Shown one piece after another: positions 1 to 53,365 of a stretch of 62,174 bases of DNA; position 1 is the stretch's first letter, and every line of letters starts with the position of its first letter. The stretch comes from a virus. Its lineage: Duplodnaviria; Caudoviricetes. The stretch spans positions 1-62,174 of IMG/VR virus record IMGVR_UViG_3300026512_000013. The stretch is one strand, 5' to 3'. Under the pieces are notes generated by a model. It was not told where the DNA came from, ran no database searches, and worked only from the letters and a program-made list of their open reading frames with translations. Position numbers and translations under genes: made by a program.

Positions 1-11
1 TTTTCTCATTC

Positions 12-25
12 TGAACGTATGTTCT
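12..25. promoter_or_regulatory. LexA (Gram-positive SOS) box-like site
   Basis: tGAACgtatGTTCt matches GAAC-N4-GTTC. Confidence 0.4.
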
Positions 26-39
26 ATAATTATAAAATT

Positions 40-150
40 TTAACATTCTATTAAAAATCAATTCTAAGCAACTTTATTATATAGTAATATCAAAATATCA
101 GTATATTATATAAATAGCTTAAAACTCAAATTTAAGCGTTATAATGATAT
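40..150. repeat. ~110-bp quasi-palindromic periodic element, degenerate copy
   Basis: shares gcttaaaactcaaattt..gcgtta with the copy at 252-368. Confidence 0.5.
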
Positions 151-251
151 TTTAATAATATTCTACTATTGATATTTTAAGCTATTAATATCAATTTAAT
201 ATCTATCTAATATCTATCAATCAATTAAATATCAATACATTATAATTGCTA

Positions 252-368
252 TAATAGCGTTTTAACGCCCAAATTTGAGTATATAGCGACTTTTAGCGTT
301 AACTTGATATTATATTCATGTTAGCATTAAAGTTGCTTAAAACTCAAATTTGGGCGTTAAAATTATAT
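252..368. repeat. ~110-bp quasi-palindromic periodic element
   Basis: perfect outer arms ttaacgcccaaatttgagt / actcaaatttgggcgttaa plus imperfect inner arms. Confidence 0.7.
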
Positions 369-382
369 TTTTATTTATTGCA

Positions 383-417
383 ATAAAAAAGCAAGTTAAT
401 TATATTATTAACTCGCT
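383..417 (-). terminator. probable intrinsic terminator
   Basis: imperfect stem agttaat/attaact followed by a T-run on the minus strand, just after ORF 443..988. Confidence 0.55.
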
Positions 418-442
418 CAAGTTGTTGATATTACTTATTTTA

Positions 443-988
443 TTAACAAGTTTCAATACTTAACAACCCGTCAACGTAATACTCCCCACCATTCACAGAA
501 AATAGTTCTTCTATTTCATCGTCTGTTATTTCATCAGTTTGTAATTGTTCAGGTGTATATATACAAAATTCAAATTTATTATCTTGTATATACTCATCTA
601 TTACTTCAATTTCGTCTAATTGATATGGATTTGGTATTATAATAGTTTCTGTGTATATTGTACCAGTGCTAAACGTTGCAATTACAAAATCCATTTCTAT
701 AAATTCATTGTAAACTACCTCATTTATTAAATTTTCATAAATTGCAAATCCTTGCACATCATCAACGATACACAATTTTAATTCATTTTGTAAAAAATCG
801 TTAATATCGCTATAGCTTATAAGTAAACAACCACCACTAACCATGCCATATTGATAATCATTTTTAATAGCTTCTATTGTATCGATTTTATCCTGAACAG
901 TTTCGCCAAAATCATACATTTCTAAAACATGATTTCTTACTACTTCAACCTGATTGTCTGTTAATTCCACGTTAATTTTTAAATTCAT
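443..988 (-). CDS. acidic hypothetical early protein
   Basis: 181-aa ORF, RBS AAGGATGGT, D/E-rich. Confidence 0.85.
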   Translation of the reverse strand: MNLKINVELTDNQVEVVRNHVLEMYDFGETVQDKIDTIEAIKNDYQYGMVSGGCLLISYSDINDFLQNELKLCIVDDVQGFAIYENLINEVVYNEFIEMDFVIATFSTGTIYTETIIIPNPYQLDEIEVIDEYIQDNKFEFCIYTPEQLQTDEITDDEIEELFSVNGGEYYVDGLLSIETC

Positions 989-1090
989 TTTATACCATCC
1001 TTTTTTTTATATATATTATACATTATTGTATAATAACATGAATATTTTTTTATTCTATGTATCGGGTAAAATACCCGTTTGTTACTTATG

Positions 1091-1399
1091 TTAAAATTCA
1101 ATTTCTTCTTCAAGTTCTTCAAGTTCTTCAAGTTTATAATAATAATCATTTAATAATTCTTCAATTTCTTCAAGATAATATTCTATAATACGATATTCTT
1201 TATAATAATCTATATAATCATTTTTTACACTTTTTAATTCTTCTCTAAAAAAAATTTCGCTCATTTCTTCAAGTTGACTAATTACATCGTTTATTTCGTT
1301 TTCATATTGAGAATTGATATCAAATTCATTTTTAAAATCTTCAAGTTCTTCAATTTCATTGACAAATTTTTCTTCAAATGTTAAATTATTATTTTTCAT
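1091..1399 (-). CDS. extremely acidic small protein (DNA-mimic / anti-defence candidate)
   Basis: 102 aa, about one third D/E, RBS AAGGGTGGT. Confidence 0.8.
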   Translation of the reverse strand: MKNNNLTFEEKFVNEIEELEDFKNEFDINSQYENEINDVISQLEEMSEIFFREELKSVKNDYIDYYKEYRIIEYYLEEIEELLNDYYYKLEELEELEEEIEF

Positions 1400-1482
1400 T
1401 TTATACCACCCTTTTTTATAATTTAGTATTACATTGTTGTAATACTTATGTATACCACTTATAAAGTGGTTTGTTACTTATG

Positions 1483-1647
1483 TTATATATTTAATAATAT
1501 ATCTAATTTTGAAGTATCGTAATACTGATAACATTCAGTAAAATTATTGTATTCATTTTCTTTAATATCGTTTGATACGTTACTATTAAATACATTGATT
1601 AAATTTTCTAATGCTTGCTCAAATGTTGCGTTTGTTGTTTTTTTCAT
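1483..1647 (-). CDS. small hypothetical early protein (54 aa, MKKTTNATFEQ...LLNI), not in ORF track
   Basis: hand-translated ORF, RBS AAGGATGGT, same leader module as its neighbours. Confidence 0.7.
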   Translation of the reverse strand: MKKTTNATFEQALENLINVFNSNVSNDIKENEYNNFTECYQYYDTSKLDILLNI

Positions 1648-1749
1648 TGTTTTACCATCCTTTTATATTGATATTAACATTGTTATTAATATCTATGTAT
1701 ACACGCTTTAAAGCGTGTTATTTGTTGCGTTTGTTCTATGTTTGATGGT

Positions 1750-1980
1750 TTTCTTATTCAATTTTCAAGGTTCAATTTAAAATTTAATATTTGATAAATC
1801 CTCTGTATTCTATCTATTTTCCCGGTACTTACTAACTAGAGTAAGTATGCTATTTTATCTTATAGATTTATAAGAACCGTTTTAGCGTTACCTGGTATAA
1901 CGTGTGTATAGTTTCAATTTATCAATTATTAAATTTTCAAAGTACAGTATTAAATTTGTTAGGAACGCCACCTCCTAACA
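1750..1980 (-). ncRNA. structured leader/ncRNA with two boxA-like antitermination motifs
   Basis: TGTACTTTGAAAATTTAATA (1927-1946) and TGAACCTTGAAAATTGAATA (1755-1774) flank several hairpins; TTGACG promoter upstream at ~2015. Confidence 0.45.
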
Positions 1981-2001
1981 CTCATAATACTAAACCTCAT
2001 T

Positions 2002-2212
2002 TAAACGTTCGTCAAGTATTTTTTATTATTTTTTTAATTTATTTTAAAAAACTACTAACAAATCTAGCTATATCAACATATTTTTTTTATTTTTATTTTC
2101 AATTTTTTTATTTTTAATTTTCTTCAATTTCTCAATAAATTAAAAACGTTCGTGTTTTAAGGGTAAAATACCTTAAAATTAGATAAAATAAAATTAAACG
2201 TTCGTGTTTTTT
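2002..2212. repeat. three copies of AAACGTTCGT, putative operator
   Basis: copies at ~2003, ~2145 and ~2196; the first overlaps the -35 of the leftward promoter. Confidence 0.55.
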
Positions 2213-2216
2213 AGGG

Positions 2217-2749
2217 TGATAATAATTCTCATTTAAAAATGCCATTTTTAAATTAAAGTAAAAACTTAAAAATACTTTATTTAATAAAGTCAAAATTTTA
2301 AATACTTTATTTAATAAAGTCAAAATTCTATAATTTTATTAATTTTCAGCTATATTTTATGAGAATGATAATCATTATCATAAATTGATTTTAATCAAAA
2401 AAAGTTTCTTCCTTATATAGTAAAAAAAGCGTATTTTACTATATAATAACAAACGTTGATATTTCAACGTTATATCATGTTTTAATTTAATATGATTATA
2501 ATAGTATAAAATACCGTTATTTTACCATTTTTAATTATATTAATGATAATCATTCTCATTAATATAACTATATGATATTGATAATCATTCTCATTAACTT
2601 AAATGATAATAATTCTCATTGATAATAATTCTCATTTGCATATTATTATATTGTTTATACAATTTATATTGTTTATATAATTTCTAATTGATAATTATTC
2701 TCATTGATAATCATTCTCATTACTAAATTGATATTGATAATCATTCTCA
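2217..2749. promoter_or_regulatory. array of 9 Fur-box-like sites
   Basis: TGATAATnATT(C/A)TCA at 2217, 2366, 2544, 2579, 2604, 2620, 2689, 2705, 2735; 2361-2379 GAGAATGATAATCATTATC is 18/19 to the classical Fur box. Confidence 0.8.
2270..2327. repeat. tandem direct repeat (30-bp period) containing near-palindrome ACTTTATTTAATAAAGT
   Basis: aaatactttatttaataaagtcaaaatt occurs twice. Confidence 0.75.
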
Positions 2750-2758
2750 ATTAGAAAG

Positions 2759-3017
2759 TTATTAACATGTTATCAACAACTAAAAAAAGTTATCAACAAT
2801 TTATTGACTTATGCACAATTTTATTATATACTGTGCATAACTTAAAGAAATAAAAGTTATTAACAAGTTATTAACAATTTTATCAACAACTCAAAAAGTT
2901 TACAATAAACTTACAATTGAGTAAGCGTGACTTATTAACAATTTATGTTATAATGTTAATAACGTTATTCACAGTTTATCAACAACTTATTCACAGTTTA
3001 TCAACAGTTTATCAACA
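2759..3017. promoter_or_regulatory. array of ~15 DnaA-box-like 9-mers
   Basis: TTWTNCACA matches at 2809, 2832 (reverse), 2965, 2987; TTATCAACA/TTATTAACA variants elsewhere; five in tandem with 11-bp period at 2965-3017. Confidence 0.8.
2804..2832 (+). promoter_or_regulatory. plus-strand sigma-A promoter overlapped by DnaA boxes
   Basis: TTGACT-17bp-TATACT. Confidence 0.55.
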
Positions 3018-3018
3018 G

Positions 3019-3032
3019 AGAACAAATGTTCG
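3019..3032. promoter_or_regulatory. LexA box
   Basis: AGAACAAATGTTCG vs consensus CGAACRNRYGTTCG. Confidence 0.65.
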
Positions 3033-3085
3033 ATTTTAAGCGAAAATTCTAAATTTTTCAAACTAATGTTTGGTAAACAGAACAG

Positions 3086-3115
3086 TACAAATGTAAACTA
3101 AATTCTATAAATGTA
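3086..3115. promoter_or_regulatory. paired TACAnnTGTA-like boxes (CopY/BlaI/MecI family type)
   Basis: tacaaatgta at 3086 and tataaatgta at 3106; the same 20-bp spacing recurs at 9903/9923. Confidence 0.45.
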
Positions 3116-3185
3116 ATATATAATTTAATTTACAAAAATAAATTTTCAATTACAAAAGAAAATCAAAAAACATTTGAGATTTTTG

Positions 3186-3246
3186 AAATGTGCCGCTGAG
3201 GGACAATATACGTCCCATAGCACGAATTTTCAGATGTGCCGCCTAG
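3186..3246. repeat. GC-rich motif ATGT(G/C)CCGC(TG/CT)AG, two copies; third at 9949-9972
   Basis: aaatgtgccgctgag; cgaattttcagatgtgccgcctag; cgaattttcaaatgtcccgctgag. Confidence 0.7.
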
Positions 3247-3273
3247 ATTACAATGTTTAATTATTATTCTAAT

Positions 3274-3316
3274 TAAAAAAAGACTAATTAAAATTAATTA
3301 ATTAGTCTTTTTTTTA
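3274..3316. terminator. bidirectional intrinsic terminator
   Basis: aaaaaaagactaattaa...ttaattagtctttttttt. Confidence 0.7.
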
Positions 3317-4238
3317 CACCTCTATATTTATTATTTTCTTTTCTACTTAACCAACAACATGTATCTTTTGAATATATTCTTTTACTGTGAGGTAAATTAA
3401 ATTGTAATTTGTCTTTGTCCAAATCTAATTTATTATTTAATATTTTACTTTCATTGTACCCTTCTAATTTAATTATATCTAAAAGATAGTTGTCAAACCT
3501 AAACCAACTTTTATGAACAGTAATTCCCTTTGCACCATAGTTATGAAAATTTTTACTATTTTTATTATAACAACGTATTATCATACCATCCCATCTATCA
3601 TATAATGTATCTTTTAAACTTTGACTAATAGGGATATATTTACTATACCCTTGCGTTTTATTAAAACTAGTATATTTAAGATAATCAGTAAATTTATTAA
3701 GTATAATATCATGAAAATTACAATGCCAAATTGCATTGTTTTTGTGTCCTTTAACTATATAGCAATCCTTTAATCTACTTTTAGCAATTACAGTAACCTT
3801 TTGATTATCTGATTGATAAGTATATCCAACTTTTATATTATCATAATATTTATCTCTAATTTCACCAGTCCATACATGATGTTGTTGTTCTAATTGCTCA
3901 TTTCCACTATTAATAAATTTAATCAAATAATGTTTTCTATTATCATTTTTATTATATTTTATTATTAATCCACTACCTATTAACATAAATTTCCCATATT
4001 GATTAGTATTAAATATTTGTCCTAAATATGCATTTTTAGATATACTAACATCATATACACTTCCCATATTAACTTGTTTACTTCGTGCCCACTTTTTAAA
4101 ATTAGTATTTATAAATTCAATATTATACCCTTTTCTTTTATTTCTTATTTCAAAATTTAATACTTTATATTTACCACAATTATTACTTTCATATATATTA
4201 CCTATTTCAATGTTATACTTTTGATATGTTTCTTTCAT
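3294..4238 (-). CDS. putative HNH-type (His-Me finger) homing endonuclease with repeated N-terminal DNA-binding modules
   Basis: W..M..RCY, YGAKGITV..W..F, LDKD, YSKDTCCW motifs. Confidence 0.75.
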   Translation of the reverse strand: MKETYQKYNIEIGNIYESNNCGKYKVLNFEIRNKRKGYNIEFINTNFKKWARSKQVNMGSVYDVSISKNAYLGQIFNTNQYGKFMLIGSGLIIKYNKNDNRKHYLIKFINSGNEQLEQQHHVWTGEIRDKYYDNIKVGYTYQSDNQKVTVIAKSRLKDCYIVKGHKNNAIWHCNFHDIILNKFTDYLKYTSFNKTQGYSKYIPISQSLKDTLYDRWDGMIIRCYNKNSKNFHNYGAKGITVHKSWFRFDNYLLDIIKLEGYNESKILNNKLDLDKDKLQFNLPHSKRIYSKDTCCWLSRKENNKYRGVKKRLIN

Positions 4239-4346
4239 AATTTCCTTTCTTATTAATATCCTTCATATTAATATATTATTTATAAAAGTATAACATACTT
4301 CAATAAAATTGTCAAGGAGTTATTTTAAAATTTTATTATTCTAAAT

Positions 4347-4386
4347 AAAAAAAACTCATTACATTTATATTATGTAATGAGTTTTA
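4347..4386. terminator. intrinsic terminator
   Basis: aaaactcattacat/atgtaatgagtttt inverted repeat. Confidence 0.7.
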
Positions 4387-4413
4387 TTTTATTATTATTA
4401 CTATATTATTTAA

Positions 4414-4536
4414 CTATTTTCTACTTGTCAATTGTATACACCTAACCCCTATAAGTCCTACAGTAAACCATAAACCACTTATTAATAACATTCTAATTGG
4501 TAATACCATTATATCTAAAAACACCTTAAAATACAT
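4414..4536 (-). CDS. 40-aa hydrophobic peptide (MYFKVFLDIMVLPIRMLL...), not in ORF track
   Basis: RBS AAGGAAGGT, single TM-like stretch. Confidence 0.6.
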   Translation of the reverse strand: MYFKVFLDIMVLPIRMLLISGLWFTVGLIGVRCIQLTSRK

Positions 4537-4584
4537 TTTTAACACCTTCCTTTTGATTACTACTATAATTATTAATATACTATT

Positions 4585-4929
4585 TTATAACTCTTCATTA
4601 TAACTGTAACTATTTTCAATCTCTTCACATGTTAAATAATAATGTTCATTTTCTAATAAATCAGTTACTAATAAATTTAATAACTCATAATTTCCTTCAA
4701 CTTCTAAATAATTTTCATCCTCAACAACAACATGATAATAAGCATTAATTATATATTGTTCTGAAAAAATTAAATCTTTATCATTTAAAAATTCTTCTAA
4801 AGTATCCCAATAAACACCCTCATTATACATATCTAAATTACTTTGAGTTGTCCAGTTTCCACTACCTTTAAATGTTTCTTTTAATAAATCATATAATTCA
4901 CTATCAAATTCAATATTACCTTTTTTCAT
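4585..4929 (-). CDS. acidic hypothetical early protein
   Basis: 114 aa, own promoter and RBS AAGGATGGT. Confidence 0.85.
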   Translation of the reverse strand: MKKGNIEFDSELYDLLKETFKGSGNWTTQSNLDMYNEGVYWDTLEEFLNDKDLIFSEQYIINAYYHVVVEDENYLEVEGNYELLNLLVTDLLENEHYYLTCEEIENSYSYNEEL

Positions 4930-4958
4930 TTTATACCATCCTTTTGATTTAATTTCTC

Positions 4959-5011
4959 TTATGTATTTCCTTGACTTAATTATACTACAAGTAATATGTT
5001 AAGTCAAGGAA
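4959..5011 (-). promoter_or_regulatory. palindromic early sigma-A promoter
   Basis: TCCTTGACTTAA...TATAAT-TAAGTCAAGGA-AATACATA; TTGACT-17-TATAAT. Confidence 0.8.
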
Positions 5012-5060
5012 TTTTTACTATTTATTTTATTATTCTATGTTATTTTATTCTATGTTATTT

Positions 5061-5576
5061 CTATTGATAATTAATATCTTTTATTAATTCATTTGTTAAT
5101 TTATACTTTATTTCATTCCCAATGAAATCAAACCAATCATCAACATTTTCTAATACATCACAAAATTCTTCTGGTGTTAAATGTTTCATAATATAATCAG
5201 TATCAAACATTAATTTTAAAAACTCATATTCATCTACTATACGTATTAAAAACTCTTTGAGTGTGATTTTACGAGCAAATAAGTACTTAAAGAAATCAGT
5301 ATCATATAAATTTTTATTGTTTAATTTTATAACAGTTTCAGTATAAATTTTTAAATTTTTATAAGTTTCTTCAATGCAATAATTCATACATATTTGATTG
5401 AATTTCATTAATTCAGTAAATTGTTTAACTTTTAATTTGTCATTTTTTAATTTGTTATTTTCTAATTGTTTTAATTGTTTATTTTTCAATTTGTCACTTC
5501 CTTTTAATATTATTCTAATGTATCCCACTTGTTTAACTAACTTCATTATATCATAGTAGTATAATGAAGTTAACAT
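5061..5576 (-). CDS. hypothetical protein (true start probably TTG at 5489)
   Basis: RBS AAGGAAGTG upstream of TTG; annotated N-terminus overlaps a promoter-like sequence. Confidence 0.75.
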   Translation of the reverse strand: MLTSLYYYDIMKLVKQVGYIRIILKGSDKLKNKQLKQLENNKLKNDKLKVKQFTELMKFNQICMNYCIEETYKNLKIYTETVIKLNNKNLYDTDFFKYLFARKITLKEFLIRIVDEYEFLKLMFDTDYIMKHLTPEEFCDVLENVDDWFDFIGNEIKYKLTNELIKDINYQ

Positions 5577-5596
5577 TTATTTACTTATTTTTATTA

Positions 5597-5839
5597 TTAA
5601 AATTCATCTAACCATTCTAAAAATTCATTAATAGTATTATCTGTTATTACTAAAAAATTTGCATACCTTGAATCACTAAAACTACACCATAGTATATAAA
5701 TTCGATATATTGATATATATTCAATTGAATTATCAATATTTTGTAATTTTGATTTAATTTCATAAATACTGTTTATATACTCATCTGGGATAATTTCTTC
5801 TTTTTTTATTTTTTTAAATATCATTGCTGTTAATTTCAA
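5597..5839 (-). CDS. hypothetical protein
   Basis: 80 aa, RBS AAGGAAGTG, TTG start. Confidence 0.75.
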   Translation of the reverse strand: MKLTAMIFKKIKKEEIIPDEYINSIYEIKSKLQNIDNSIEYISIYRIYILWCSFSDSRYANFLVITDNTINEFLEWLDEF

Positions 5840-5944
5840 TTTGTCACTTCCTTTTTTAATTTTAGAGAATTACTTTTTAATTCTCTTTCCTCTATTTCTA
5901 AATATATTATACCACTATTAATATTATAAGTCAAACATTATTTA

Positions 5945-6199
5945 CTATTTAATTTTATATAAAAATTCATTAATTTTATTATTACTTATGATATATCTAT
6001 ATAAATTATTTTTAGTATATAAGTATTCATTATTTTTAAATTTTTTATATATACATTTTTCTAAAAATTCAACATCAACTTTTTTCCATCCTATTGTATA
6101 CCAATTATTTCTAATTTTAGCTTCTTGATATATTAAAATCTGTTTATTTTCTAATATGTAAGAATTTCTATCATTCAATAAATTACTATTGTTTTTCAT
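5945..6199 (-). CDS. hypothetical protein
   Basis: 84 aa, own promoter, RBS AAGGATGGT. Confidence 0.75.
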   Translation of the reverse strand: MKNNSNLLNDRNSYILENKQILIYQEAKIRNNWYTIGWKKVDVEFLEKCIYKKFKNNEYLYTKNNLYRYIISNNKINEFLYKIK

Positions 6200-6325
6200 T
6201 TTAATACCATCCTTTTATAATTTTACTGTATTTCCTTTGATACTCTTATTATACTATAAGTAATATAATAAGTCAAACATTATTTATAATATTTATTTTA
6301 TTATTTATTTTAATTAATTTTAAAT

Positions 6326-6630
6326 AAAAAAATGCTACTATATTAATATAGTAGCTAAGCAATTGTATATTATAGCAAAAAGGTTGGTACAAAACTATAA
6401 TATTTTATCGGTAATTAATTACATAAGATATTATTAAATATCATTAGAAATCAAGTATTATACACGCATATACACGCAAGTATAATATCTTATGTTATGA
6501 ATTTACACAGTATTAAATTGTAGTTGTGTATATACGCATTTATTAAATATTACTGTATTTCTAACATTTTTATGTTTAAGAAATACAGTAATAACAACAG
6601 TTTCTTCAAGTGTAAATTATAAATTTTAAG
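6326..6630 (-). ncRNA. candidate 3'-UTR-derived regulatory sRNA
   Basis: gene-free ~300 nt with several stems, a 9-bp stem presenting an anti-RBS loop (6367-6403) and a terminal terminator (6326-6356). Confidence 0.5.
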
Positions 6631-6634
6631 TAAA

Positions 6635-6904
6635 TTATATAAATTTTGTGTAGTCTGTAATATCACACACTATATCAGTTAAACTCATATCAAAATTTAT
6701 ACATATATCATTTAACTTTTTTAAATTTATTGAATAAATACCATTTTTATAATTATGATATGTTTGTTTACTCATGTTATTTAATTCATAAAATTCCTTT
6801 TGATACATACCTTTACCATTTCTAATTTTATCAATTTTTTTAAATATTTCTATTGTCTTAACACATATATTATTATTATTATTATTATTATTCATTTTCA
6901 TCAA
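6635..6904 (-). CDS. XRE/Cro-like helix-turn-helix regulator
   Basis: R..KGM.QKEF...MSKQTY..Y.NG..SINL..L..IC..FDMSL pattern. Confidence 0.75.
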   Translation of the reverse strand: MMKMNNNNNNNNICVKTIEIFKKIDKIRNGKGMYQKEFYELNNMSKQTYHNYKNGIYSINLKKLNDICINFDMSLTDIVCDITDYTKFI

Positions 6905-7070
6905 CTTCTTTTAAATTTTCAATCCCATAATATTCAATAAAAATAAGTAGTATTTCTAAATAGTTTTTATTTTTATAAAAATTTAATATCTCTTGAATAG
7001 TGTTAAATCCATTTTCTTTTATATTTTCAATATCTACATTAATACAATCTAATAACATTTTATTATTCAT
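6888..7070 (-). CDS. hypothetical protein
   Basis: 60 aa, RBS AAGGAAGGT, coupled to HTH gene. Confidence 0.7.
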   Translation of the reverse strand: MNNKMLLDCINVDIENIKENGFNTIQEILNFYKNKNYLEILLIFIEYYGIENLKEVDENE

Positions 7071-7091
7071 TTTAATACCTTCCTTTTATAG

Positions 7092-7366
<275 letters not shown>

Positions 7367-7402
7367 TTTAATACCTTCCTTTATATTGTTTAATAATTTC
7401 TC

Positions 7403-7455
7403 TTATGTATTTCCTTAACTTTATTATATCACTGTATAATATTAAAGTTAAGGAA
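7403..7455 (-). promoter_or_regulatory. palindromic early promoter
   Basis: TTCCTTAACTTTAA...TATAAT-AAAGTTAAGGAA-ATACATA. Confidence 0.7.
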
Positions 7456-7497
7456 TATTTATTATTTTATTCTATTACTTATTTTATGTTGTTTATT

Positions 7498-7980
7498 CTA
7501 TTGTTCACACAATAAACCAAAATCAGTCAACCAACTTCCACCATCCATTAATATATCTCTTCCAAAACTCTTATAATTAAAATATCTTTCAGTAGTTTCA
7601 CATAATTCTAAAAATTCTGCATAATATTCACCAACATCATACTCATCATCAATATCATATAATAAATAATAATTTCCAATATTTACCAACTCTTCAGAAC
7701 CATGTATTTCAATTATTGCTTTTACTAAATTTTCATCATCATCACATAATTCATAAATATCAAATAATTCATCAACATTATCATATTCATTAATTTCTAA
7801 ATTTAAATCATTTTCATAATCATGAATAGCAAACTCTTCATTACCATTTTTATTTAACATATTTTGAATTTCCTCTTCAACTTCTGAACTATCTGAGTAA
7901 TTATTAAAATCTAACCATTTCCCTACTAAATTCCCATTGTTATATTCTGCTAAATCTGCTACATAAATTTTAAAGTTCAT
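7498..7980 (-). CDS. ardA: antirestriction protein ArdA (DNA mimic, inhibits type I R-M)
   Basis: IYVADLAEYNNGNLVGKW, EEFAIHDYE, YFNY.SFGRD motifs; very acidic. Confidence 0.9.
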   Translation of the reverse strand: MNFKIYVADLAEYNNGNLVGKWLDFNNYSDSSEVEEEIQNMLNKNGNEEFAIHDYENDLNLEINEYDNVDELFDIYELCDDDENLVKAIIEIHGSEELVNIGNYYLLYDIDDEYDVGEYYAEFLELCETTERYFNYKSFGRDILMDGGSWLTDFGLLCEQ

Positions 7981-8017
7981 TCTAATACCATCCTTTTAAT
8001 TTTAATTTAATTTCCCT

Positions 8018-8070
8018 TATGTTTCTTCCTTGACTTAATTATACTATAGTATATTAATCAAGTCAAGGAT
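8018..8070 (-). promoter_or_regulatory. palindromic early promoter
   Basis: TCCTTGACTT...TAGTATAAT-TAAGTCAAGGA. Confidence 0.8.
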
Positions 8071-8091
8071 TATTTATTTTATTTTATAAAT

Positions 8092-8472
8092 TTATTTCCT
8101 TAATAATATTTTATAATCTTTTAATCCTATATCATATTTTATAGAATCTTTATCATCACTTTTTAATAAGCGTGTTATACGTTCAATTTTACAAAATAAT
8201 TCATGATATAATTGTTCTAACATTTCTTCATAATTTTCATTTCCAATATTTGAGTGAACACAAATTTCTTGTTTTTCACCATTTAAATAATAATATGAAA
8301 TACCATTTTTTTCTACTGTTAATTTATTTTTAATAAAAACTCTACTTAAAAAACTAATATATGTATTTTTCATATTATAATTTTTAAAGTCTGAGTTTTT
8401 ATTTATTCTTTTGTTACTATATCTAAAATATTCTTCTACCATTGATTTGTCTAATACTAATTTATTTTTCAT
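8092..8472 (-). CDS. hypothetical protein
   Basis: 126 aa, RBS AAGGTGGT. Confidence 0.8.
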   Translation of the reverse strand: MKNKLVLDKSMVEEYFRYSNKRINKNSDFKNYNMKNTYISFLSRVFIKNKLTVEKNGISYYYLNGEKQEICVHSNIGNENYEEMLEQLYHELFCKIERITRLLKSDDKDSIKYDIGLKDYKILLRK

Positions 8473-8528
8473 TTTATACCACCTTTAATTTTAATTTAAT
8501 AATCAACTATTGATTATTATTTATTTAT

Positions 8529-8580
8529 CTTATGTATTTCCTTGACTTAATTATACTACAAGTAATATATTAAGTCAAGA
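8529..8580 (-). promoter_or_regulatory. palindromic early promoter (near-identical to 4959-5011)
   Basis: cttatgtatttccttgacttaattatactacaagtaatat.ttaagtcaag shared. Confidence 0.8.
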
Positions 8581-8595
8581 AATTTTTACTTTATT

Positions 8596-9015
8596 TTATA
8601 AATATTTTATGTTATTTTCATATCTTAATTTTTCAACTGGTTCATACATAAAGCTTAATAATCTACAATATAACCATCCATGATTGATATATAAATTAGT
8701 TTTAAATATTTCTGTATAATCACCTTTAAAATAACATTTAAACAATAATTCAATATCTTTTCTATTTATAATATTTGTGTGTTTTATAAATCTATTATCA
8801 ACTACAATTTTTTTATACATTTTATTTATAGCTTTTCTATCTATAATAGAATTAATAAATTGTTTATCATTTAATTTTTTAAATTTTATTATTTCTAAAT
8901 CTGAAAAATATAATGGATAATCACCTTTTATTTTAATTTTGAATTGTTCAAATTTCATATCGGTAAAATAATTTTTTACTTCTTTACTAATAGTAATTTT
9001 AACTTCATATAACAT
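8596..9015 (-). CDS. hypothetical protein
   Basis: 139 aa, RBS AAGGATGGT. Confidence 0.8.
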   Translation of the reverse strand: MLYEVKITISKEVKNYFTDMKFEQFKIKIKGDYPLYFSDLEIIKFKKLNDKQFINSIIDRKAINKMYKKIVVDNRFIKHTNIINRKDIELLFKCYFKGDYTEIFKTNLYINHGWLYCRLLSFMYEPVEKLRYENNIKYL

Positions 9016-9040
9016 ATTAACACCATCCTTTTAATTTAAT

Positions 9041-9358
9041 TTATTTTGAATAATTATTTAATAAATTTTCAACTCTAATTATATTCGCTTGAATATTTGT
9101 TAATATAAAATCATATTCAAATTTATTCACTTTTGCAATTTCTCTTTCATACCCTTTTACGGTTTTAGTATCATTTGCTTTTGTTAATATTGTAAATAAA
9201 TTTTTAACACCTTTTGAAAAATAAATACTTATATCATTTCTTTCTTCTTCATTAATTATTTTTTTTTCTAATAACTCAGACAATTTCATTTCTAAATTAG
9301 ATACTTTTTCACTTTTTAAAATTGTTAATGTTTTTTCTACCATTTGATTTTTAGTCAT
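9041..9358 (-). CDS. hypothetical protein, first gene of early cluster
   Basis: 105 aa, promoter TTGACT-17-TATACT at ~9407-9435. Confidence 0.8.
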   Translation of the reverse strand: MTKNQMVEKTLTILKSEKVSNLEMKLSELLEKKIINEEERNDISIYFSKGVKNLFTILTKANDTKTVKGYEREIAKVNKFEYDFILTNIQANIIRVENLLNNYSK

Positions 9359-9473
9359 TTTAATTACTTCCTTTCAATAGTTTATGTATTCCCTTTGATT
9401 AATTACAGTATATCACATTGATATTATAAGTCAAGTTTTTTAATATTTATTTTTAGTTTATTCTCATTAATTT

Positions 9474-9546
9474 TTTCTCTTCCTTTATATAAGATAATTA
9501 TAACGCTATTTTTACATTAATTATATACTATATAAGGAAGAGAAAA
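9474..9546. repeat. inverted repeat with TCTTCCTTATATAGTA motif shared with 2407-2422
   Basis: ttttctcttcctt...aaggaagagaaaa; 9526-9541 is the exact reverse complement of 2407-2422. Confidence 0.7.
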
Positions 9547-9597
9547 ATTATTTTGATTTCATTACCAACTATCAACTGAAAATAATTAAAATAATGT

Positions 9598-9626
9598 TTG
9601 CAATTTAATTAAACTTATGATATACT
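9598..9626 (+). promoter_or_regulatory. plus-strand sigma-A promoter into non-coding DNA
   Basis: TTGCAA-17bp-TATACT with extended -10 TG. Confidence 0.55.
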
Positions 9627-9811
9627 GTATTTAAGTTAAAGAAGTAAAGAAAAGAAATAGAGAAGTAAAGAAATTAAAATTAAAATTAAAATTAAAATTA
9701 AATAAAAAAATAAGTTAAAAAATGATACTAATATAATTTAGTTGGAAAAATTCCACCTCGATAACCACTATCAACGCAAACAATATGGGGAGTATATTTT
9801 TTTGGACTTAT

Positions 9812-9889
9812 CGAACATAGTTTATTAATTTTAAAAAAGAGAACAATTGTTCGGAAAACTTCTGTTCTATATTATCGAACACTTGTTTT
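9812..9889. promoter_or_regulatory. cluster of LexA-box-like sites
   Basis: AGAACAATTGTTCG at 9840; weaker copies at 9812, 9855, 9876. Confidence 0.6.
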
Positions 9890-10017
9890 GTATTATAAAA
9901 ATTACGAATGTAAAATTAAGATTACAAATGAGAAAAAAGTTACTGAAACGAATTTTCAAATGTCCCGCTGAGCTATGACAATCTGGCGACACTGTCTTGC
10001 CGACATAGATTTACATT

Positions 10018-10052
10018 AAACTATTATAATTAAATTATAATAGTTTTTTTAT
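10018..10052 (+). terminator. plus-strand intrinsic terminator
   Basis: aaactattataat/attataatagttt followed by a T-run on +. Confidence 0.55.
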
Positions 10053-10084
10053 TGTCTACAATTAATAACATATAGTATTTTATA

Positions 10085-10115
10085 ATAAAAAAAAGAGTGA
10101 TTATTAATCACTCTT
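10085..10115 (-). terminator. intrinsic terminator
   Basis: aagagtgatt/aatcactctt plus T-run on minus. Confidence 0.75.
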
Positions 10116-10144
10116 AATTTATTTACTTTATTATATTTTATTAT

Positions 10145-10528
10145 TTATCTACTTATTGTAAAGCTATCTTTTAATGTTAAATCATCATAATATATATTTA
10201 CTAATATTTTTGTTGAAGTTAAATTAATAACTGATACATCTCCATTAATATAACAGAAATACTCGTCTGTTTTCTTTCCATTCATAAATCCTGTAACCTT
10301 ATAACCATAGTTCTCAATTTTATTTTCAATAGTCCTATTTAAACTTATAGTTTGTGTTGATGTCGATGTATTAGATGATACATTATTTCTATTGTCATTA
10401 TCGCTACTTAGATGTGCTATTAATAGTGAGAATAATAATAATATTATCACTATAGCAAGAGTTATACTCCCATCACTTTCTATTCTTTTATTATTATTAT
10501 TGTTAATAGTATTAATATTATTTTCCAT
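10145..10528 (-). CDS. membrane-anchored hypothetical protein
   Basis: one TM helix followed by S/T/N-rich linker. Confidence 0.8.
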   Translation of the reverse strand: MENNINTINNNNNKRIESDGSITLAIVIILLLFSLLIAHLSSDNDNRNNVSSNTSTSTQTISLNRTIENKIENYGYKVTGFMNGKKTDEYFCYINGDVSVINLTSTKILVNIYYDDLTLKDSFTISR

Positions 10529-10563
10529 ATATTCATCTCCTTATTTATTCTTATAATTTAATA

Positions 10564-10869
10564 TTACTCTTTATCCTCATCTGGAAATCTAACTTCAGTA
10601 AATGGTATATCCAATGCCTCATTGTTCTCATCAATCAATCTTAATTCTTCCATTTTATTATCAATAAATTCTTTAGCTAATTCCATAGTTTTAAATTTCC
10701 CTAATATCATAGTTTTGTTAGTGCCACCAAATATTTGACCCATAAAATTAATTCCATTATTTATCAATACCTTGAAACATTTGTTATTTTTACGCTCAAT
10801 CCAAATATTTACACCATACCCCCGCTTAATATATTGTTCATAGTCATTGTTGATTTTTGTATTATTCAT
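10564..10869 (-). CDS. hypothetical protein
   Basis: 101 aa, RBS AAGGAG. Confidence 0.75.
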   Translation of the reverse strand: MNNTKINNDYEQYIKRGYGVNIWIERKNNKCFKVLINNGINFMGQIFGGTNKTMILGKFKTMELAKEFIDNKMEELRLIDENNEALDIPFTEVRFPDEDKE

Positions 10870-10883
10870 ATTATTCTCCTTTT

Positions 10884-11249
10884 CTATTTAACCATTTCTA
10901 ATAGTTTCTGTATTGTCCAAAATTGAGGACTTATTAAATATGGGATTATTTCAACTAAGCTAAGTATGATAGATATTACTATTGGATAAAACCAAGTTTT
11001 CTTTATTAATTGTTTAAATTCTCCTTCTTCTCCGTTGTATTCATAATGAAATATATAAGTTCCCATCATTGTAAATACATAAAGTAAATAAAACAGAAAT
11101 ATGCTAAATGGGATTTCTGTTAATAATTCTTTTGCTATTAAATATCTTCCTATCTCAGGTAAACTTTCCATGAAATTTGCTTTTAAAAATTCAATCCCTA
11201 TTCCTAATTGACTACTAATTTGCAACAATAATTCGTTTAAACCTTCCAT
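10884..11249 (-). CDS. membrane protein
   Basis: two hydrophobic segments. Confidence 0.8.
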   Translation of the reverse strand: MEGLNELLLQISSQLGIGIEFLKANFMESLPEIGRYLIAKELLTEIPFSIFLFYLLYVFTMMGTYIFHYEYNGEEGEFKQLIKKTWFYPIVISIILSLVEIIPYLISPQFWTIQKLLEMVK

Positions 11250-12004
11250 TATTCCATCTCCTTTAAATTTTTAATTTCTCCTAATTTTGCTAACACTATT
11301 GTAACATAAGGTGCATCATAAGTCAAATGTTTATTATAATAATTTTTACTTCCATTATTCCCCATATTATATCTCAGTAGACTCTCTTTAATATTATTAG
11401 TTTGAATTGTGCTAAAATAATATACTCCTGCCATTACATTATCATAATAATCTAAATAGTCTAACTCTCTCCCAAAATGTTTATTAAGTGTTGAATGATT
11501 ACATGAATTTACCTGAAATAAACCTTTGTCTACAGTCCCATTGCTATTATGATTAATAGCTTTAGGATTATAATTACTTTCTAACTCTATTAAAGCTAAC
11601 ATGAGTTTATAGTCTACATTATATATATCACATTGTAAATACAAATACTGTTGTTGTTCCATATTAAGTGGTATATTAGGCATATAGAACGTTTTTAATA
11701 GTTCAGAGTGTAAATTGTCAATAGACTCTTTAAGTACGCTAATTTCATTGTCTAAGATAGCTGTGAGTGTATCTACATCATCTTGAGCTATTGACAATTC
11801 ATCTTCATAATAATTTTCTATAATCTTTTGATTATTATATAGTAATGTAATCTCTTTGTGTAAGTCTATTGTTTTTCTAATTTGTGTTCCTATAAATAAT
11901 ATACTTACTAATAATAATAGAGATAATATAAATATAACTCCATTTTTAGTATTAACTTTGTTTCTTTCTGTATAATATAGTCTCTCGAATAATGTTGATT
12001 TCAT
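11249..12004 (-). CDS. membrane-anchored lytic transglycosylase (SLT family) with coiled coil
   Basis: ESNYNPKA, GLFQVN, YNMG motifs; N-terminal TM. Confidence 0.85.
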   Translation of the reverse strand: MKSTLFERLYYTERNKVNTKNGVIFILSLLLLVSILFIGTQIRKTIDLHKEITLLYNNQKIIENYYEDELSIAQDDVDTLTAILDNEISVLKESIDNLHSELLKTFYMPNIPLNMEQQQYLYLQCDIYNVDYKLMLALIELESNYNPKAINHNSNGTVDKGLFQVNSCNHSTLNKHFGRELDYLDYYDNVMAGVYYFSTIQTNNIKESLLRYNMGNNGSKNYYNKHLTYDAPYVTIVLAKLGEIKNLKEME

Positions 12005-12406: not shown

Positions 12407-13575
12407 TCAATCTGTAATTTCAACTTCATAATTATACATAGCTCTATATAATTTTTCTGGAATATCTTTTTTATAATAGTCTGCTACTTTTTTAATATAT
12501 TTTTCTTTATATTCTTTATAAGCATTAAAAGCTAATTTAGGAGTTGAATAATATCCTATAAATCTATGCCCCAATATATCAGTAGGTAAAGATAGAGTGT
12601 TATACTGAGTGACAAAAGATTTTTTTTCTTTATCATAAGTTACTCCTATTGGGAATTTACCTCTTGCATCTTTTCGTGTTACAAATAAATTATTTATGTT
12701 ACTAGGAACAATTATACAAGTTTCAGGGGAGTATAATTTATTTCCTTTTACTAAAATGTCTTTATCTAATGACATTTTTTTGCCTTCTATTTGATAATAA
12801 TTTTCATCATACCAATCTCCAAATACTTGAAAATTATGCCACTCTTCACAAACTGTGGTATTTTTATATGAAGGATTTTTTTCTTTAAATAATTGGTTAT
12901 ACCCTCTTTCTATCATTCCACTCCAAGTTCCATAACACTTTAAAATTTTCCCTCCTTTTCTTGATACATGCTTCCCTTGCCCTAAATACCCTACTCCATG
13001 AACAGAACGTTGATAAGGATTTTTAACTTGTTTTGATATAAAACTTGAATAAGATGTTTCAACAACACCTTTATGTTCATCTTGGAATTCTATAATAATT
13101 CTCGTTGAATTTATACATTTAATTATTTTCATAGGAACACCTTTATTAGAAATTACGATTTTACCAATTTTTGATTCAATTGATGATTTTATCGCTATTT
13201 TTCTTGTTGAAGGTTTATGTGGACTTTCTACATTTCCTTTTTTAAAGTTTTCATATGTTACTCTAACCATAGTGTTATAACCATCATAAATTTTTACTAA
13301 AATATTATGACAATTTTCATATTTAATAATTTCAATTTTACAACCTTGTTTTGACATTCCTGTTTTGCCAACTCTAATAGCAGAAGTAGGGTTGGCAACG
13401 CTTCCACTTTTAAATCGGTCATAACGTGTTTTAACTATAAATTTATTTTTATCTTGAAATTCTACTATTACTTTATTAGCTCCATATACTCGACAATTTT
13501 CATTATATCGCCTTGATTATTAGTCTCTACTTCTCCAGTTCTTTCTTCTTTCTTTTCCTTTAAATCAGCTCTCAT
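12407..13575 (-). pseudogene. HNH-type homing endonuclease, frameshifted near the 5' end
   Basis: RBS+ATG at 13575 (MRADLKEKK...MKIVEY); frame break at ~13485; resumes GANKVIVEFQD and joins ORF 12407..13357 (W..M..R, CEEWHNFQ.F, LDKD, YSPETC). Confidence 0.7.
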
Positions 13576-13605: not shown

Positions 13606-14076
13606 TTATTCACTTGTAGACCCAAATCCACCATTCCTATCTTCTTTTTCAATTTCGCCATCGTTATCACTAATTAAATATTTAGAAAATATCCCCTGTG
13701 CGATACACTCACCTTTTTTAATATGGATGGTTTTATTAGATGTATTCAGTAAACCTAATCCTATGTTAGCTTCATAATCGAAATCTATCACTCCAGTCCC
13801 ATTTTGTAATACCAACCCTTTCTTAATCGCCAATGAACTTCTAATATATATTTTTAATACTTCATCATCAAGCATATAAGTCTTAACGTCAGTAAATAAT
13901 AATATTTTACCTTGAGGTGGAATAGTAATTGCCACAGGAGTAGAGAAATCATATCCTGCTGAATATTTAGTTTTTCTAACAGGAAGTATAATTTTTTCCT
14001 CTGGATACTTTCTGTGTTTTTTACCTACTACTTTAAATCCTCTTTGTTTAACTTCTTTAGTCTTTGCTTTAGCCAT
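13606..14076 (-). CDS. dut: dUTPase (trimeric)
   Basis: SAGYD, RSS, GVID.DY, IAQG, RNGGFGST motifs. Confidence 0.95.
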   Translation of the reverse strand: MAKAKTKEVKQRGFKVVGKKHRKYPEEKIILPVRKTKYSAGYDFSTPVAITIPPQGKILLFTDVKTYMLDDEVLKIYIRSSLAIKKGLVLQNGTGVIDFDYEANIGLGLLNTSNKTIHIKKGECIAQGIFSKYLISDNDGEIEKEDRNGGFGSTSE

Positions 14077-20610: not shown

Positions 20611-21759
20611 TTAAATTGTATTAGGAAATTCAGTGTTAGTTTTATTCAATGTTATTATATTTGAAAGGTTTTCAATATAGCTAAATTCCCACCCTTTATA
20701 ATCTTTCTTCCCAGCAAGTAATATCCGACTAAGTTTCTTAGGCTTTATTATTCCAAAACGATTAATAAATTTTTGAATACTGTAAGAATAGTAAACATTA
20801 CCTTCAGGAGAAATTGCTTTAAATATTGTTTTTTTATTTGTCCATATAGAATTAATTAATTTAATTTTTAATTCTCCACTATAGTTTAAAAATGATGTTT
20901 TACTTGGAGTAACAGGGATATACATATCTTTAATACCAATAAATTGATTTTCAATATTATATGGAGTTATTCCTTTTGGGAAAATATCTACATATTCACA
21001 ATACCAACCATAGTATAAATGTTCTTTACTTCTTTTTAAGCCATTTTCTATACCTTTCCGAGTCATAAAGTCTAATTTTTTTGCCATATCTGTTAAATTA
21101 AAATGATAATATATAAGTTCTCCATCTGGAGATGTGAGTTTAAATAGTTTTTGTTTATGAGGTTGATACATATAGTTTTTAGTCCCACTTGTCCACATGC
21201 AATCATCCCTACTATATATATCATTATGTTGAGTATAATTCTTATAGTCTTTATCTAAAGAAATTTCATTCTTATAAAATTTTTCTTTATCCCAATTAGG
21301 CAACTCTTGTATGTCATTTAGAAAATATTCAAAGCGATGCCATCTCTCATCTACTGTAATGCCTAAAGCACCATAAGTATTATATTTCTTATCATTTTTA
21401 TTATAACATCTATTAATCATTCTTTCCCAAAAAGAATATTCTTTCTCATAATTAGCAATTACATTTTTTACATACCCTATATACCCTATATTTCCCACAT
21501 TTGGTTTTAGATAATCTTTAATATTACATCCATCTCTAGGGTGTGTTCTCATGGAAGTTTTATACCCTGTTTTAATAAATTCAATATTATAAATAAATCT
21601 CCCCTTATCATTTTTTCTTTTGTCTACAATTTTAAATCTCCCTGATTCACAAGATTCATAAATGTTTCCAATTTTTACAAAATTTCTTTTATTACTCATA
21701 ATTTGTGTTCCCCTTTCATTCCCTATTAATAACTTCACTATGGGAACAGTATACCACAC
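20611..21759 (-). CDS. HNH-type homing endonuclease with C-terminal NUMOD-like repeats (start probably ~21699)
   Basis: W.RMINRCY, YGALGITV.ERW..F, LDKD, YSRDDC; repeated SP.G...Y...GW modules; directly downstream of nrdD. Confidence 0.75.
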   Translation of the reverse strand: MWYTVPIVKLLIGNERGTQIMSNKRNFVKIGNIYESCESGRFKIVDKRKNDKGRFIYNIEFIKTGYKTSMRTHPRDGCNIKDYLKPNVGNIGYIGYVKNVIANYEKEYSFWERMINRCYNKNDKKYNTYGALGITVDERWHRFEYFLNDIQELPNWDKEKFYKNEISLDKDYKNYTQHNDIYSRDDCMWTSGTKNYMYQPHKQKLFKLTSPDGELIYYHFNLTDMAKKLDFMTRKGIENGLKRSKEHLYYGWYCEYVDIFPKGITPYNIENQFIGIKDMYIPVTPSKTSFLNYSGELKIKLINSIWTNKKTIFKAISPEGNVYYSYSIQKFINRFGIIKPKKLSRILLAGKKDYKGWEFSYIENLSNIITLNKTNTEFPNTI

Positions 21760-52798: not shown

Positions 52799-53365
52799 TT
52801 ATTTAGTAAAAACCCCACGACTTCCGTCACCGTTTTTCAAAAAATGGTAGCCAAGCGAAAGAAACAGAGCATCTGAGCCATATGTATCCTCTGCATCTGT
52901 AGGGTCTCTGAATAATCTAAACCCTATTATATCACCTATATTTATATTAGTACCATCAATAACTTGAAACTCTACTACTTTATGAACTCTATCTTCATCA
53001 TCGGTAGAGTCTACTGCATCTAATGTTACAACAGTTGTTGGAGCATTATCTACACTAAATATACTGTATTCTAATTGCCATTTAACATCGCCTGCGTTAG
53101 CATTATCAGCACACCAATGAATATGAGGTCTTAAATCTGAACCCACAAAATAACTATGTGGTATCTCAAAACTTCCACTCATTTCTTCTGTTGTCGATGC
53201 TCCATTAAAACCATACACATCAATATTACCGATTAAAGTTTTCTTATCTGGTCTAGCAGTCCCACCTTGAATAGTATAAGGTAATAGTATAATATCGTCC
53301 CATACTGTGTCGGAATGAAAACCTTTATCCAAGTCTACACCTGTTGTTACTGTTTCATAACTCAT
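52799..53365 (-). CDS. putative virion fibre/decoration protein
   Basis: N-terminal MSY..VTTG.DLD; WDD, PH.Y..GS...PHIHW, V.WQLEY, LFRD....DTY..DA. Confidence 0.6.
   Translation of the reverse strand: MSYETVTTGVDLDKGFHSDTVWDDIILLPYTIQGGTARPDKKTLIGNIDVYGFNGASTTEEMSGSFEIPHSYFVGSDLRPHIHWCADNANAGDVKWQLEYSIFSVDNAPTTVVTLDAVDSTDDEDRVHKVVEFQVIDGTNINIGDIIGFRLFRDPTDAEDTYGSDALFLSLGYHFLKNGDGSRGVFTK

Follow-up and report, generated by a model that had tools for sequence, protein, structure and literature searches.

The non-coding DNA between the XRE/Cro-type helix-turn-helix (HTH) gene and the following terminator (6356-6634, minus strand) of the viral record IMGVR_UViG_3300026512_000013 contains a hairpin, called hairpin C here, whose loop is a non-random antisense copy of the translation initiation region (TIR) that recurs among the early genes. 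The source is an IMG/VR virus record with a completeness estimate of 44%, and the window referred to below is the whole stretch of 62,174 bp that was analysed. The observation is confirmed. Its interpretation, in which the element acts as an RNA by pairing with the early TIR, is plausible and partly supported by the modelled pairing, and its probability is put at about 0.45. An earlier inspection of the letters of this DNA, referred to as the original prediction, had drawn attention to the same hairpin and proposed a small RNA (sRNA) directed at the early genes.

Hairpin C occupies positions 6367-6403 of the minus strand and consists of a 9-10 bp A/U stem presenting an anti-TIR loop of 17-19 nt. 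As folded, the stem has 10 bp, including a terminal U-G pair. The perfect stem 6367-6375/6395-6403 and the minus-strand loop TTTTGTACCAACCTTTTTG, which the original prediction had described, are both present. The anti-TIR loop UUUUGUACCAACCUUUUUG (6376-6394, minus strand) is antisense to the early TIR, and the TIR likeness at this site spans about 30 nt, including the upstream ATTATA, and ends at the start codon. When reverse-complemented, the loop agrees with the TIRs of genes 988 and 1399 (genes are named here by their start coordinates) at all but 3 of 19 positions, with 0.02 chance matches of this quality expected per window. Scanning the window at the same threshold returned three matches, which are these two TIRs and the loop site itself. 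The motif AAAAGGWTGG occurs seven times in the 62 kb, against 0.38 expected: six copies stand at minus-strand gene starts and one is on the plus strand (6378). Among the four sense-strand matches to ACC.{1,2}CCTT, the loop is the only non-coding one. In the predicted fold, the anti-Shine-Dalgarno (anti-SD) core of the loop is unpaired and closed by 10 bp. Shuffling the flanks around the fixed motif, with their dinucleotide content preserved, left the core unpaired, in a loop with at least 8 contiguous closing pairs, in only 12 of 400 cases. The hairpin is predicted at -7.0 kcal/mol on the minus strand (z -2.5) and at -4.1 kcal/mol on the plus strand (z -0.3).

The minus strand carries every called gene of the window, with small genes making up an early-type block at coordinates 1-9,400. 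The initiation region of this block, AAAAGGATGGTATAAAATG with its variants, was found at 10 of the 16 early starts examined, including each of the ten starts for which a uniform initiation region had originally been noted. Genes from 10.1 kb onward have SD sequences of the AGGAGG type; the early TIR is thus a distinct class, recognisable by a specific regulator. The candidate trans targets, all on the minus strand and given with loop duplex and cofold energies in kcal/mol, are the TIRs at 986-1007 (-18.4 and -16.6), 1397-1418 (-18.4 and -13.9), 1645-1666 (-12.0 and -5.7) and 4927-4948 (-17.0 and -10.8). Further candidate targets are the TIR of the ArdA gene at 7978-7999 (-13.4 and -7.9), the AGGTGG variant at 8470-8491 (-15.6 and -11.0) and the TIR at 9013-9034 (-11.5 and -5.0). 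The GGAAGG variants at 7068-7089 (-11.1 and -8.6) and 7364-7385 (-10.2 and -5.1) are weaker candidates. The TIR of gene 5945-6199, at 6197-6218 (duplex -13.3), would be the cis partner of the loop on a read-through transcript. The targets had been described as toxic or anti-defence genes, a description that holds for the ArdA gene (7498-7980; Pfam E 2.2e-25) and is not shown for the others.

The predicted pairing of the loop is selective for the early TIRs. Over 86 starts, the mean loop duplex energy is -11.3 kcal/mol for the 16 early starts versus -7.3 kcal/mol for the 70 later ones, and the strongest partners among the starts are 988, 1399, 4929 and 8472. With the ten cited TIRs, the loop reaches a mean of -14.1 kcal/mol, a value attained by none of 500 shuffled loops (-7.0 ± 1.5 kcal/mol). 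It also ranks first of the 673 non-coding sense-strand 19-mers of the early region for pairing with these ten TIRs.

The only relative found is a metagenome contig of 2,097 bp with 21.8% G+C (L033), the one related locus among the 23 loci that carry the 18-nt promoter/leader motif in metagenome contigs. Its promoter and leader are identical to those of the window over 31 nt, its HTH homologue is 48% identical over 84 residues, and a TIR of the same kind stands at three of its gene starts. The order of elements is also that of the window: the HTH gene is followed by a non-coding stretch of about 280 nt (fold z -4.4), a terminator-like 15-bp hairpin with a U-run (856-811), a TTGACT-type promoter and, next, an SprT-like gene. 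The contig has one antisense TIR motif, AAAAGGATGT at 924-933, corresponding to a GGATGT variant and matching exactly one of its own three TIRs. The CATCCT core of this motif is the 6-nt loop of a 10-bp hairpin (917-942), a placement obtained in 8 of 400 flank shuffles. The hairpin is predicted at -7.9 kcal/mol on the minus strand versus -6.3 kcal/mol on the plus strand, so that the hairpins of both genomes are slightly more stable on the minus strand. The non-coding stretches of the window and L033 are unalignable save for short blocks, and the stems of the two hairpins are entirely different; the design of an anti-SD core in a loop shortly before the terminator of the HTH operon thus outlasted the sequence around it. 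This apparent retention of the design, seen in two genomes only, is the main argument for a function.

The HTH gene (6635-6901, minus strand; Pfam HTH_26 E 9.8e-06, HTH_3 E 8.9e-05) lies upstream of the stretch, where it had been placed originally, and is the last gene of an operon driven by an early-type promoter, TTAACT-17-TATAAT with TG, at 7423-7451 (minus strand). The leader motif GGAAATACATAAGAG comes after this promoter. The HTH protein falls in a PHROG of transcriptional regulators, and its nearest solved chain is the PezA HTH domain (E 8.5e-04). The two genes upstream of it, 7366 and 7070, belong to no informative family, the matches being a sub-threshold one to DUF3060 and a weak one to a PHROG of unknown function. 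The ArdA gene is part of the operon that precedes the HTH operon. The terminator that the original prediction had seen at the end of the stretch was also found, as an intrinsic terminator at 6326-6355 (minus strand) with a stem of 9-11 bp (6355-6334) containing three G-C pairs and followed by U7. Terminator-like sites number 12 over 12 kb, this one included, where 0.5 would be expected. The approximately 280 non-coding nt between the HTH gene and the terminator fold into four hairpins, and the fold of the whole stretch on the minus strand has -65.5 kcal/mol (z -4.2). Transcription of the stretch on the minus strand is likely, because it is on the coding strand between a gene and its terminator.

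In the proposed mechanism, for which we infer transcription, processing and the effect on translation from sequence, the early operon (promoter 7451-7423, two small genes and the HTH gene) would be transcribed through 6356-6634 to the terminator. The terminator-proximal hairpin C would expose the antisense TIR copy in a single-stranded loop. This loop would base-pair with early TIRs, covering the SD sequence and the start codon, and translation of the early genes would fall, which amounts to a negative feedback from the early transcript. Action in trans on several early mRNAs, by the intact mRNA or by a 3′ fragment processed from it, is a tentative part of this reading and, taken by itself, somewhat doubtful. 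It is given more weight than the cis mode. It accords with the best partners of the loop, which are 988, 1399, 4929 and 8472 and not the neighbouring gene, and it would give a reason for the uniform early TIR. The stronger statement, that one RNA in or from the 3′ tail of the early operon represses the whole TIR class with the ArdA gene included, is similarly open to doubt. Pairing-based roles of other kinds are very unlikely.

Other elements were found in the same stretch. Hairpin A (6548-6593, minus strand) is a 15-bp perfect inverted repeat with five inner pairs, whose 3′ arm is a sense copy and whose 5′ arm is an antisense copy of the leader motif of gene 6199, AAATACAGTAA. The 13-mer AAATACAGTAATA (6560-6548) occurs in the 3′ untranslated region (3′UTR) of L033, too. 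Hairpin B (6413-6503, minus strand) has 22-nt arms that are 91% complementary, the 5′ arm being a sense and the 3′ arm an antisense copy of the motif ACATAAGATATTAT, and its 47-nt loop contains repeats of TATACACGCA. These repeats form a tandem pair at 6459-6478, with a third, 90% copy at 6529-6538; within the window they are confined to this stretch and are candidate protein-binding sites. The 19-mer TATACACAACTACAATTTA at 6514-6532 is part of an imperfect palindrome (6507-6556) and has no second copy in the window when up to 3 mismatches are allowed. It is identical in L033 (972-990; 19/19, E 1.5e-06), where its orientation to the HTH gene is opposite. As both copies form one arm of such a palindrome, the opposite orientation could equally stem from differential decay of an ancestral palindrome or from an inversion.

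Several further candidates in the stretch were rejected. An extended -10 element, TGcTATAAT at 6377-6369, would place the start of transcription just before the terminator, which is meaningless. The open reading frames (ORFs) 6273-6392 (minus), 6524-6622 (plus) and 6550-6666 (minus), considered as sources of a small protein, all lack the TIR. Rfam gave no match at the gathering score in the whole window, with the antisense RNA c4 of P1/P7 included in the search. At E up to 5, four matches to region 6250-6700 were obtained, which reached 15-22 bits versus cut-offs of 50-100 and belonged to miRNA families and STnc180.

A number of points weigh against action as a pairing RNA. The fold of the whole stretch is at least as good on the plus strand (z -5.3 versus -4.2 on the minus strand), and since the hairpins are palindromes of the DNA, structure alone names neither an RNA nor a strand. 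A dedicated promoter of a separate sRNA that stands above the AT-rich background was not found in the stretch: the candidates 6661-6634 and 6643-6616 score 10/12, and such matches number 183 versus 140 expected. The RNA is thus most simply the 3′UTR of the operon started at 7451-7423, and 6356-6634 (minus strand) is probably a structured 3′UTR of this early operon. The separate sRNA gene of the original prediction could not be upheld, and an sRNA would at best be 3′UTR-derived. No RNA run is present among the sequencing runs listed for region 4900-8100. Four DNA runs contain this region wholly or in part, at word shares of 0.98 (possibly the source), 0.51, 0.36 and 0.13, and none of the conclusions draws on them. 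The antisense leader motifs UCUUAUGUA and UUACUGUAUUUC, to which additional complementarity had been ascribed, do occur, but each is locked in a long perfect stem against an arm that carries the corresponding leader motif in sense, which probably makes them unavailable for pairing in trans. The best-conserved block of the stretch is the 19-mer, which by its opposite orientations appears to fit a DNA site better than an RNA, and conservation of the seed is seen in a single relative.

The targets raise objections of their own to the pairing. The claim that the whole early gene set shares the TIR was overstated, as the starts 2323, 4238, 5489, 5839, 6901 and 9358 (6 of 16) lack it. The loop corresponds to GGTTGG versus GGATGG, GGGTGG, GGAAGG or AGGTGG in the TIRs, which leads to a central mismatch or bulge in each duplex, and a central A-A mismatch is seen with almost every target. 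The best sense-strand site for the loop (-18.6 kcal/mol) is at 13800-13829, contains GGTTGGTA and lies inside the coding sequence 13606-14076. It was rejected as a real target, being within a coding sequence and not a ribosome-binding site, and is probably a chance site; strong chance sites therefore exist. Three starts of later genes also reach about -13 kcal/mol with the loop. There would in addition be a problem of stoichiometry, with one 3′UTR copy facing mRNAs from at least 8 strong promoters. Finally, a model in which the loop acts in cis fits the predicted anatomy equally well.

This cis model is a sub-case of pairing. The anti-TIR would silence the TIR of gene 5945-6199 on transcripts that read through the terminator, and the gene would then be translated only from its own consensus promoter (TTGACT-17-TATAAT, 6248-6276, minus strand), which lies between the anti-TIR and the TIR of that gene. 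The order anti-TIR, proximal promoter, TIR is the same in both phages (6394-6376, 6276-6248 and 6218-6197 in the window), and the minimum free energy (MFE) folds of the hypothetical read-through RNAs pair the loop with the SD sequence and AUG, with 12.5 (window) and 14.7 (L033) expected ensemble pairs. A precedent exists in T4 (excerpts of PMC3014915). Nevertheless, an efficient-looking terminator already separates anti-TIR and TIR, both promoters are of the same early class, and other early junctions have neither terminator nor anti-TIR, so that nothing visible singles out this gene for insulation. The duplex of the whole hairpin is also weaker at the downstream TIR (-17.8 kcal/mol) than at 988 and 1399 (-22.3 and -22.5 kcal/mol). 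An exclusive role as a cis insulator is rather improbable. Alternatively, the stretch may be a graveyard of promoter-leader-TIR cassette fragments left by rearrangement, with the antisense TIR as a functionless inverted leftover, such as a spacer that was flipped between short inverted repeats, or what was once the start of a gene since lost. In AT-rich non-coding DNA, hairpin loops are known to mutate by small inversions, as in chloroplasts. Sense leader copies without a gene behind them occur at 6560-6548 (AAATACAGTAATA) and 6495-6482 (ACATAAGATATTAT), and L033 has a sense leader with a degenerate TIR without an ORF at 1025-1003. Such an origin would also suit the restriction of the TIR likeness to a cassette part of about 30 nt, the mismatch of the window loop to every real TIR and the size of the gap, since about 280 nt matches one small early gene. 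It is nevertheless unlikely, if still worth serious attention: neutral survival of a motif of 10-19 nt is improbable where the neighbouring protein is 48% identical and the flanking DNA unalignable, and in both phages the core lies within a hairpin loop closed by 10 bp, as in few of the shuffles (12/400 and 8/400). Moreover, the order of antisense leader and then antisense TIR differs from that of a simple inverted cassette, and no plus-strand ORF follows the motif in either genome.

The stretch might instead work at the level of DNA, as an array of protein-binding sites such as operators of the HTH protein, with the palindromes acting as double-stranded DNA. The fully conserved 19-mer (6514-6532), inverted relative to the HTH gene in L033, points in this direction, as do the two TATACACGCA copies with their 90% copy, found nowhere else in the window, and the TATACAC-type motifs that recur in the L033 stretch. 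All hairpins are inverted repeats of the DNA that fold equally on both strands, the array borders on the HTH gene, and a promoter-like site of the plus strand (6459-6486) coincides in part with the repeats. The SD-like core, however, has no palindromic symmetry and matches the TIR, a signal at the level of RNA, and a DNA-binding protein has no reason to recognise TIRs at gene starts. As an account of hairpin C this is quite unlikely; it serves the 19-mer and the repeats better, and may hold for these neighbouring elements without excluding an RNA role of hairpin C. A product of the plus strand, be it a ribosome-binding site, genuine or decayed, or a hairpin that binds protein, is suggested by the fact that this strand reads as an early TIR, the upstream ATTATA included, and that the whole stretch folds slightly better there. 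The original prediction had itself raised the ribosome-binding site of a decayed plus-strand gene as the counter-explanation, but neither a start codon nor an ORF comes after the motif in the window or L033. The plus strand has no called genes and lacks a promoter, the terminator serves the minus strand only, and the plus-strand fold of hairpin C does not stand out (z -0.28), all of which makes such a product highly improbable. Binding of a CsrA-type protein to a plus-strand hairpin was rejected, as the loop has no GGA triplet and there is no sign of plus-strand transcription. Of these explanations, pairing of the minus-strand loop with early TIRs is the one preferred here.

Relatives other than L033 were sought in several ways. 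Searching phage records with region 5900-7100 by blastn gave no match. In IMG/VR, no relative was confirmed with the HTH protein, the product of gene 6199, ArdA, the 251-aa protein encoded at 11249-12004 or the helicase. The 19-nt TIR matched six IMG/VR loci, all unrelated, with a GC content of 0.31-0.49 and one or two motif copies each; the conserved 19-mer matched none, and the promoter/leader 18-mer matched 39, none of which was related by blastn of window positions 1-12000. The HTH protein found no relative in metagenome contigs, and at least 120 loci in genome contigs matched the 18-mer, with none related among the matches listed. The helicase of the window is at most 32% identical to those in phage records (tblastn; 118 records, all below 60%), and, judged by this divergence, such records are too distant to carry this non-coding stretch.

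The G+C content along the window is 19-30%, and no tRNA or tmRNA genes were found in it. Its replication genes encode a DnaB-like helicase, a family-A-type polymerase, a RecJ-like nuclease and NrdD, and they only distantly resemble those of SPbeta-like and Herelleviridae-type phages of Firmicutes. The phage of this record is probably virulent. Four HNH or homing-endonuclease-like genes are scattered over the early and replication regions, at 3294-4238, 12407-13357, 20611-21759 and 53362-54561 (PHROGs 2081, 953, 374 and 559, respectively).

Near-consensus promoters of the TTGACT-17-TATAAT type recur through the early block. The early promoters at 4979-5007, 7423-7451, 8038-8066 and 8550-8578, as well as that of L033 at about 150-185, lie within an inverted repeat, CCTTGACTTAA-N18-TTAAGTCAAGG, which places the complement of the -35 box after the -10 box. 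This repeat may serve as an operator or, in read-through transcripts, as a hairpin for processing. Genes 988, 1399 and 1647 have no TTGACT promoter. Each is instead preceded by a G+C-rich hairpin (1062-1077, 1453-1470 and 1700-1718, minus strand) to which ATACATA(A/G) is directly attached downstream, a sequence that elsewhere comes after promoters; these hairpins may be processing or 5′-end-defining sites. Perfect AAT/TTA trinucleotide runs of 8-10 units were seen at gene boundaries, at 6868-6892 and 7094-7122 in the window and at about 1860-1885 in L033. They encode poly-Asn N-termini (the HTH protein of the window and a 176-aa protein of L033) or sit just upstream of a TIR, and are possibly slippage-prone tracts.

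About 1 kb of non-coding DNA at 2330-3290 is dense in repeat arrays. Approximately eight units of the TGATAATCATTCTCA type are found at 2544-2750, with a related palindromic unit near 2366-2381; we take these to resemble Fur-box sites. TTATCAACA occurs six times at 2770-3017 and 15 times in the window, versus 2.0 expected, alongside the related 9-mers TTATTAACA and TTATTCACA; these repeats presumably resemble DnaA boxes. Plus-strand promoter-like sites at 2804-2832 and 2927-2954 stand among the arrays. The region could be a replication origin or a region titrating host factors. An origin at 6356-6634 was rejected: the GC-skew has no turn there, and 2330-3290 is a far better candidate.

Antisense control of translation is known in phages in several forms. 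The segment with which the loops of c4 pair takes in the icd ribosome-binding site, and c4 itself is processed from the same transcript. In excerpts of PMC8198154, the C4 antisense RNA of the immI operon of P1/P7 is described as required for full repression of ant, with its binding site in the operon. The candidate would resemble c4 as a phage RNA that pairs with phage mRNA, blocks downstream genes (icd and ant in the case of c4) and acts away from its own site. On the other hand, c4 shares an operon of a temperate phage with the one target downstream of it, whereas the candidate stands at the 3′ end of another operon, would address up to ten targets and comes from a phage that is probably virulent. 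The sar RNA of P22 is cis-encoded, being transcribed from the strand opposite its target. According to excerpts of PMC12197685, it is a small RNA of the phage, which forms pairs with ant mRNA and hampers translation at the initiation step. In contrast, the candidate is encoded away from its targets, and the complementarity is partial.

The cis case has its counterpart in T4, where, in excerpts of PMC3014915, an upstream antisense segment in long transcripts of e, soc, 49 and I-TevI pairs with the SD sequence and start codon, whereas transcripts from a proximal promoter between the segments are translated. The order anti-TIR, promoter, TIR is shared by the window and L033. In T4, however, the arms are adjacent and the proximal promoter is late; in the candidate, a terminator and a distance of about 165-215 nt separate the arms, and the two promoters belong to the early type. 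The same excerpts of PMC3014915 describe RegA, which competes with ribosomes on about 30 mRNAs, and RegB, which cuts GGAG in early SD sequences. Both bring about a class-wide early shut-off through initiation regions, but they are proteins, whereas the candidate would be an RNA. No homologue of either protein was found in the window, where no search was directed at them. A phage sRNA acting on the ribosome sites of early genes is not described in the excerpts of PMC12197685 and PMC3014915, and its absence from print is not claimed. The distinctive points of the candidate would be that it is carried in a 3′UTR, is not encoded antisense to its targets and reaches up to ten genes via a shared TIR.

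The original prediction had likened the element to Aca-type repressors. In an Aca-type operon the HTH gene closes a set of small anti-defence genes, and its protein is an autorepressor that binds an inverted-repeat operator in its own promoter; here the HTH gene is the last in an operon of small genes, the other two of which have no informative family, and inverted repeats flank early promoters, where binding by the HTH protein is putative. In the host-takeover module of SPO1-like phages, there are many small early genes, repeated strong promoters of the sigma-A type and strong, similar ribosome-binding sites. The early block of small genes and the distantly SPO1/SPbeta-like replication genes are reminiscent of these phages. 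We know of no antisense-TIR element in that module, although the literature was not searched specifically for one.

To our knowledge, temporal shut-off of early genes, among them host-takeover and anti-defence genes, has been described mainly for proteins (such as T4 RegA and RegB and Aca repressors), and the known phage antisense RNAs, for instance P1 c4 and P22 sar, each control one target. If real, the element would be a variant form of the known antisense control of phage translation; if it acted in cis only or as a DNA site, it would belong to ordinary early-region regulation. If the pairing in trans is true, a single RNA directed at the TIR common to about ten genes would be a simple, evolvable class switch and an RNA counterpart of T4 RegA/RegB, and it would explain the uniform, non-canonical early initiation region. 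It would also provide a search rule for uncultured phages, namely to look ahead of terminators for a hairpin whose loop carries the early TIR in antisense.

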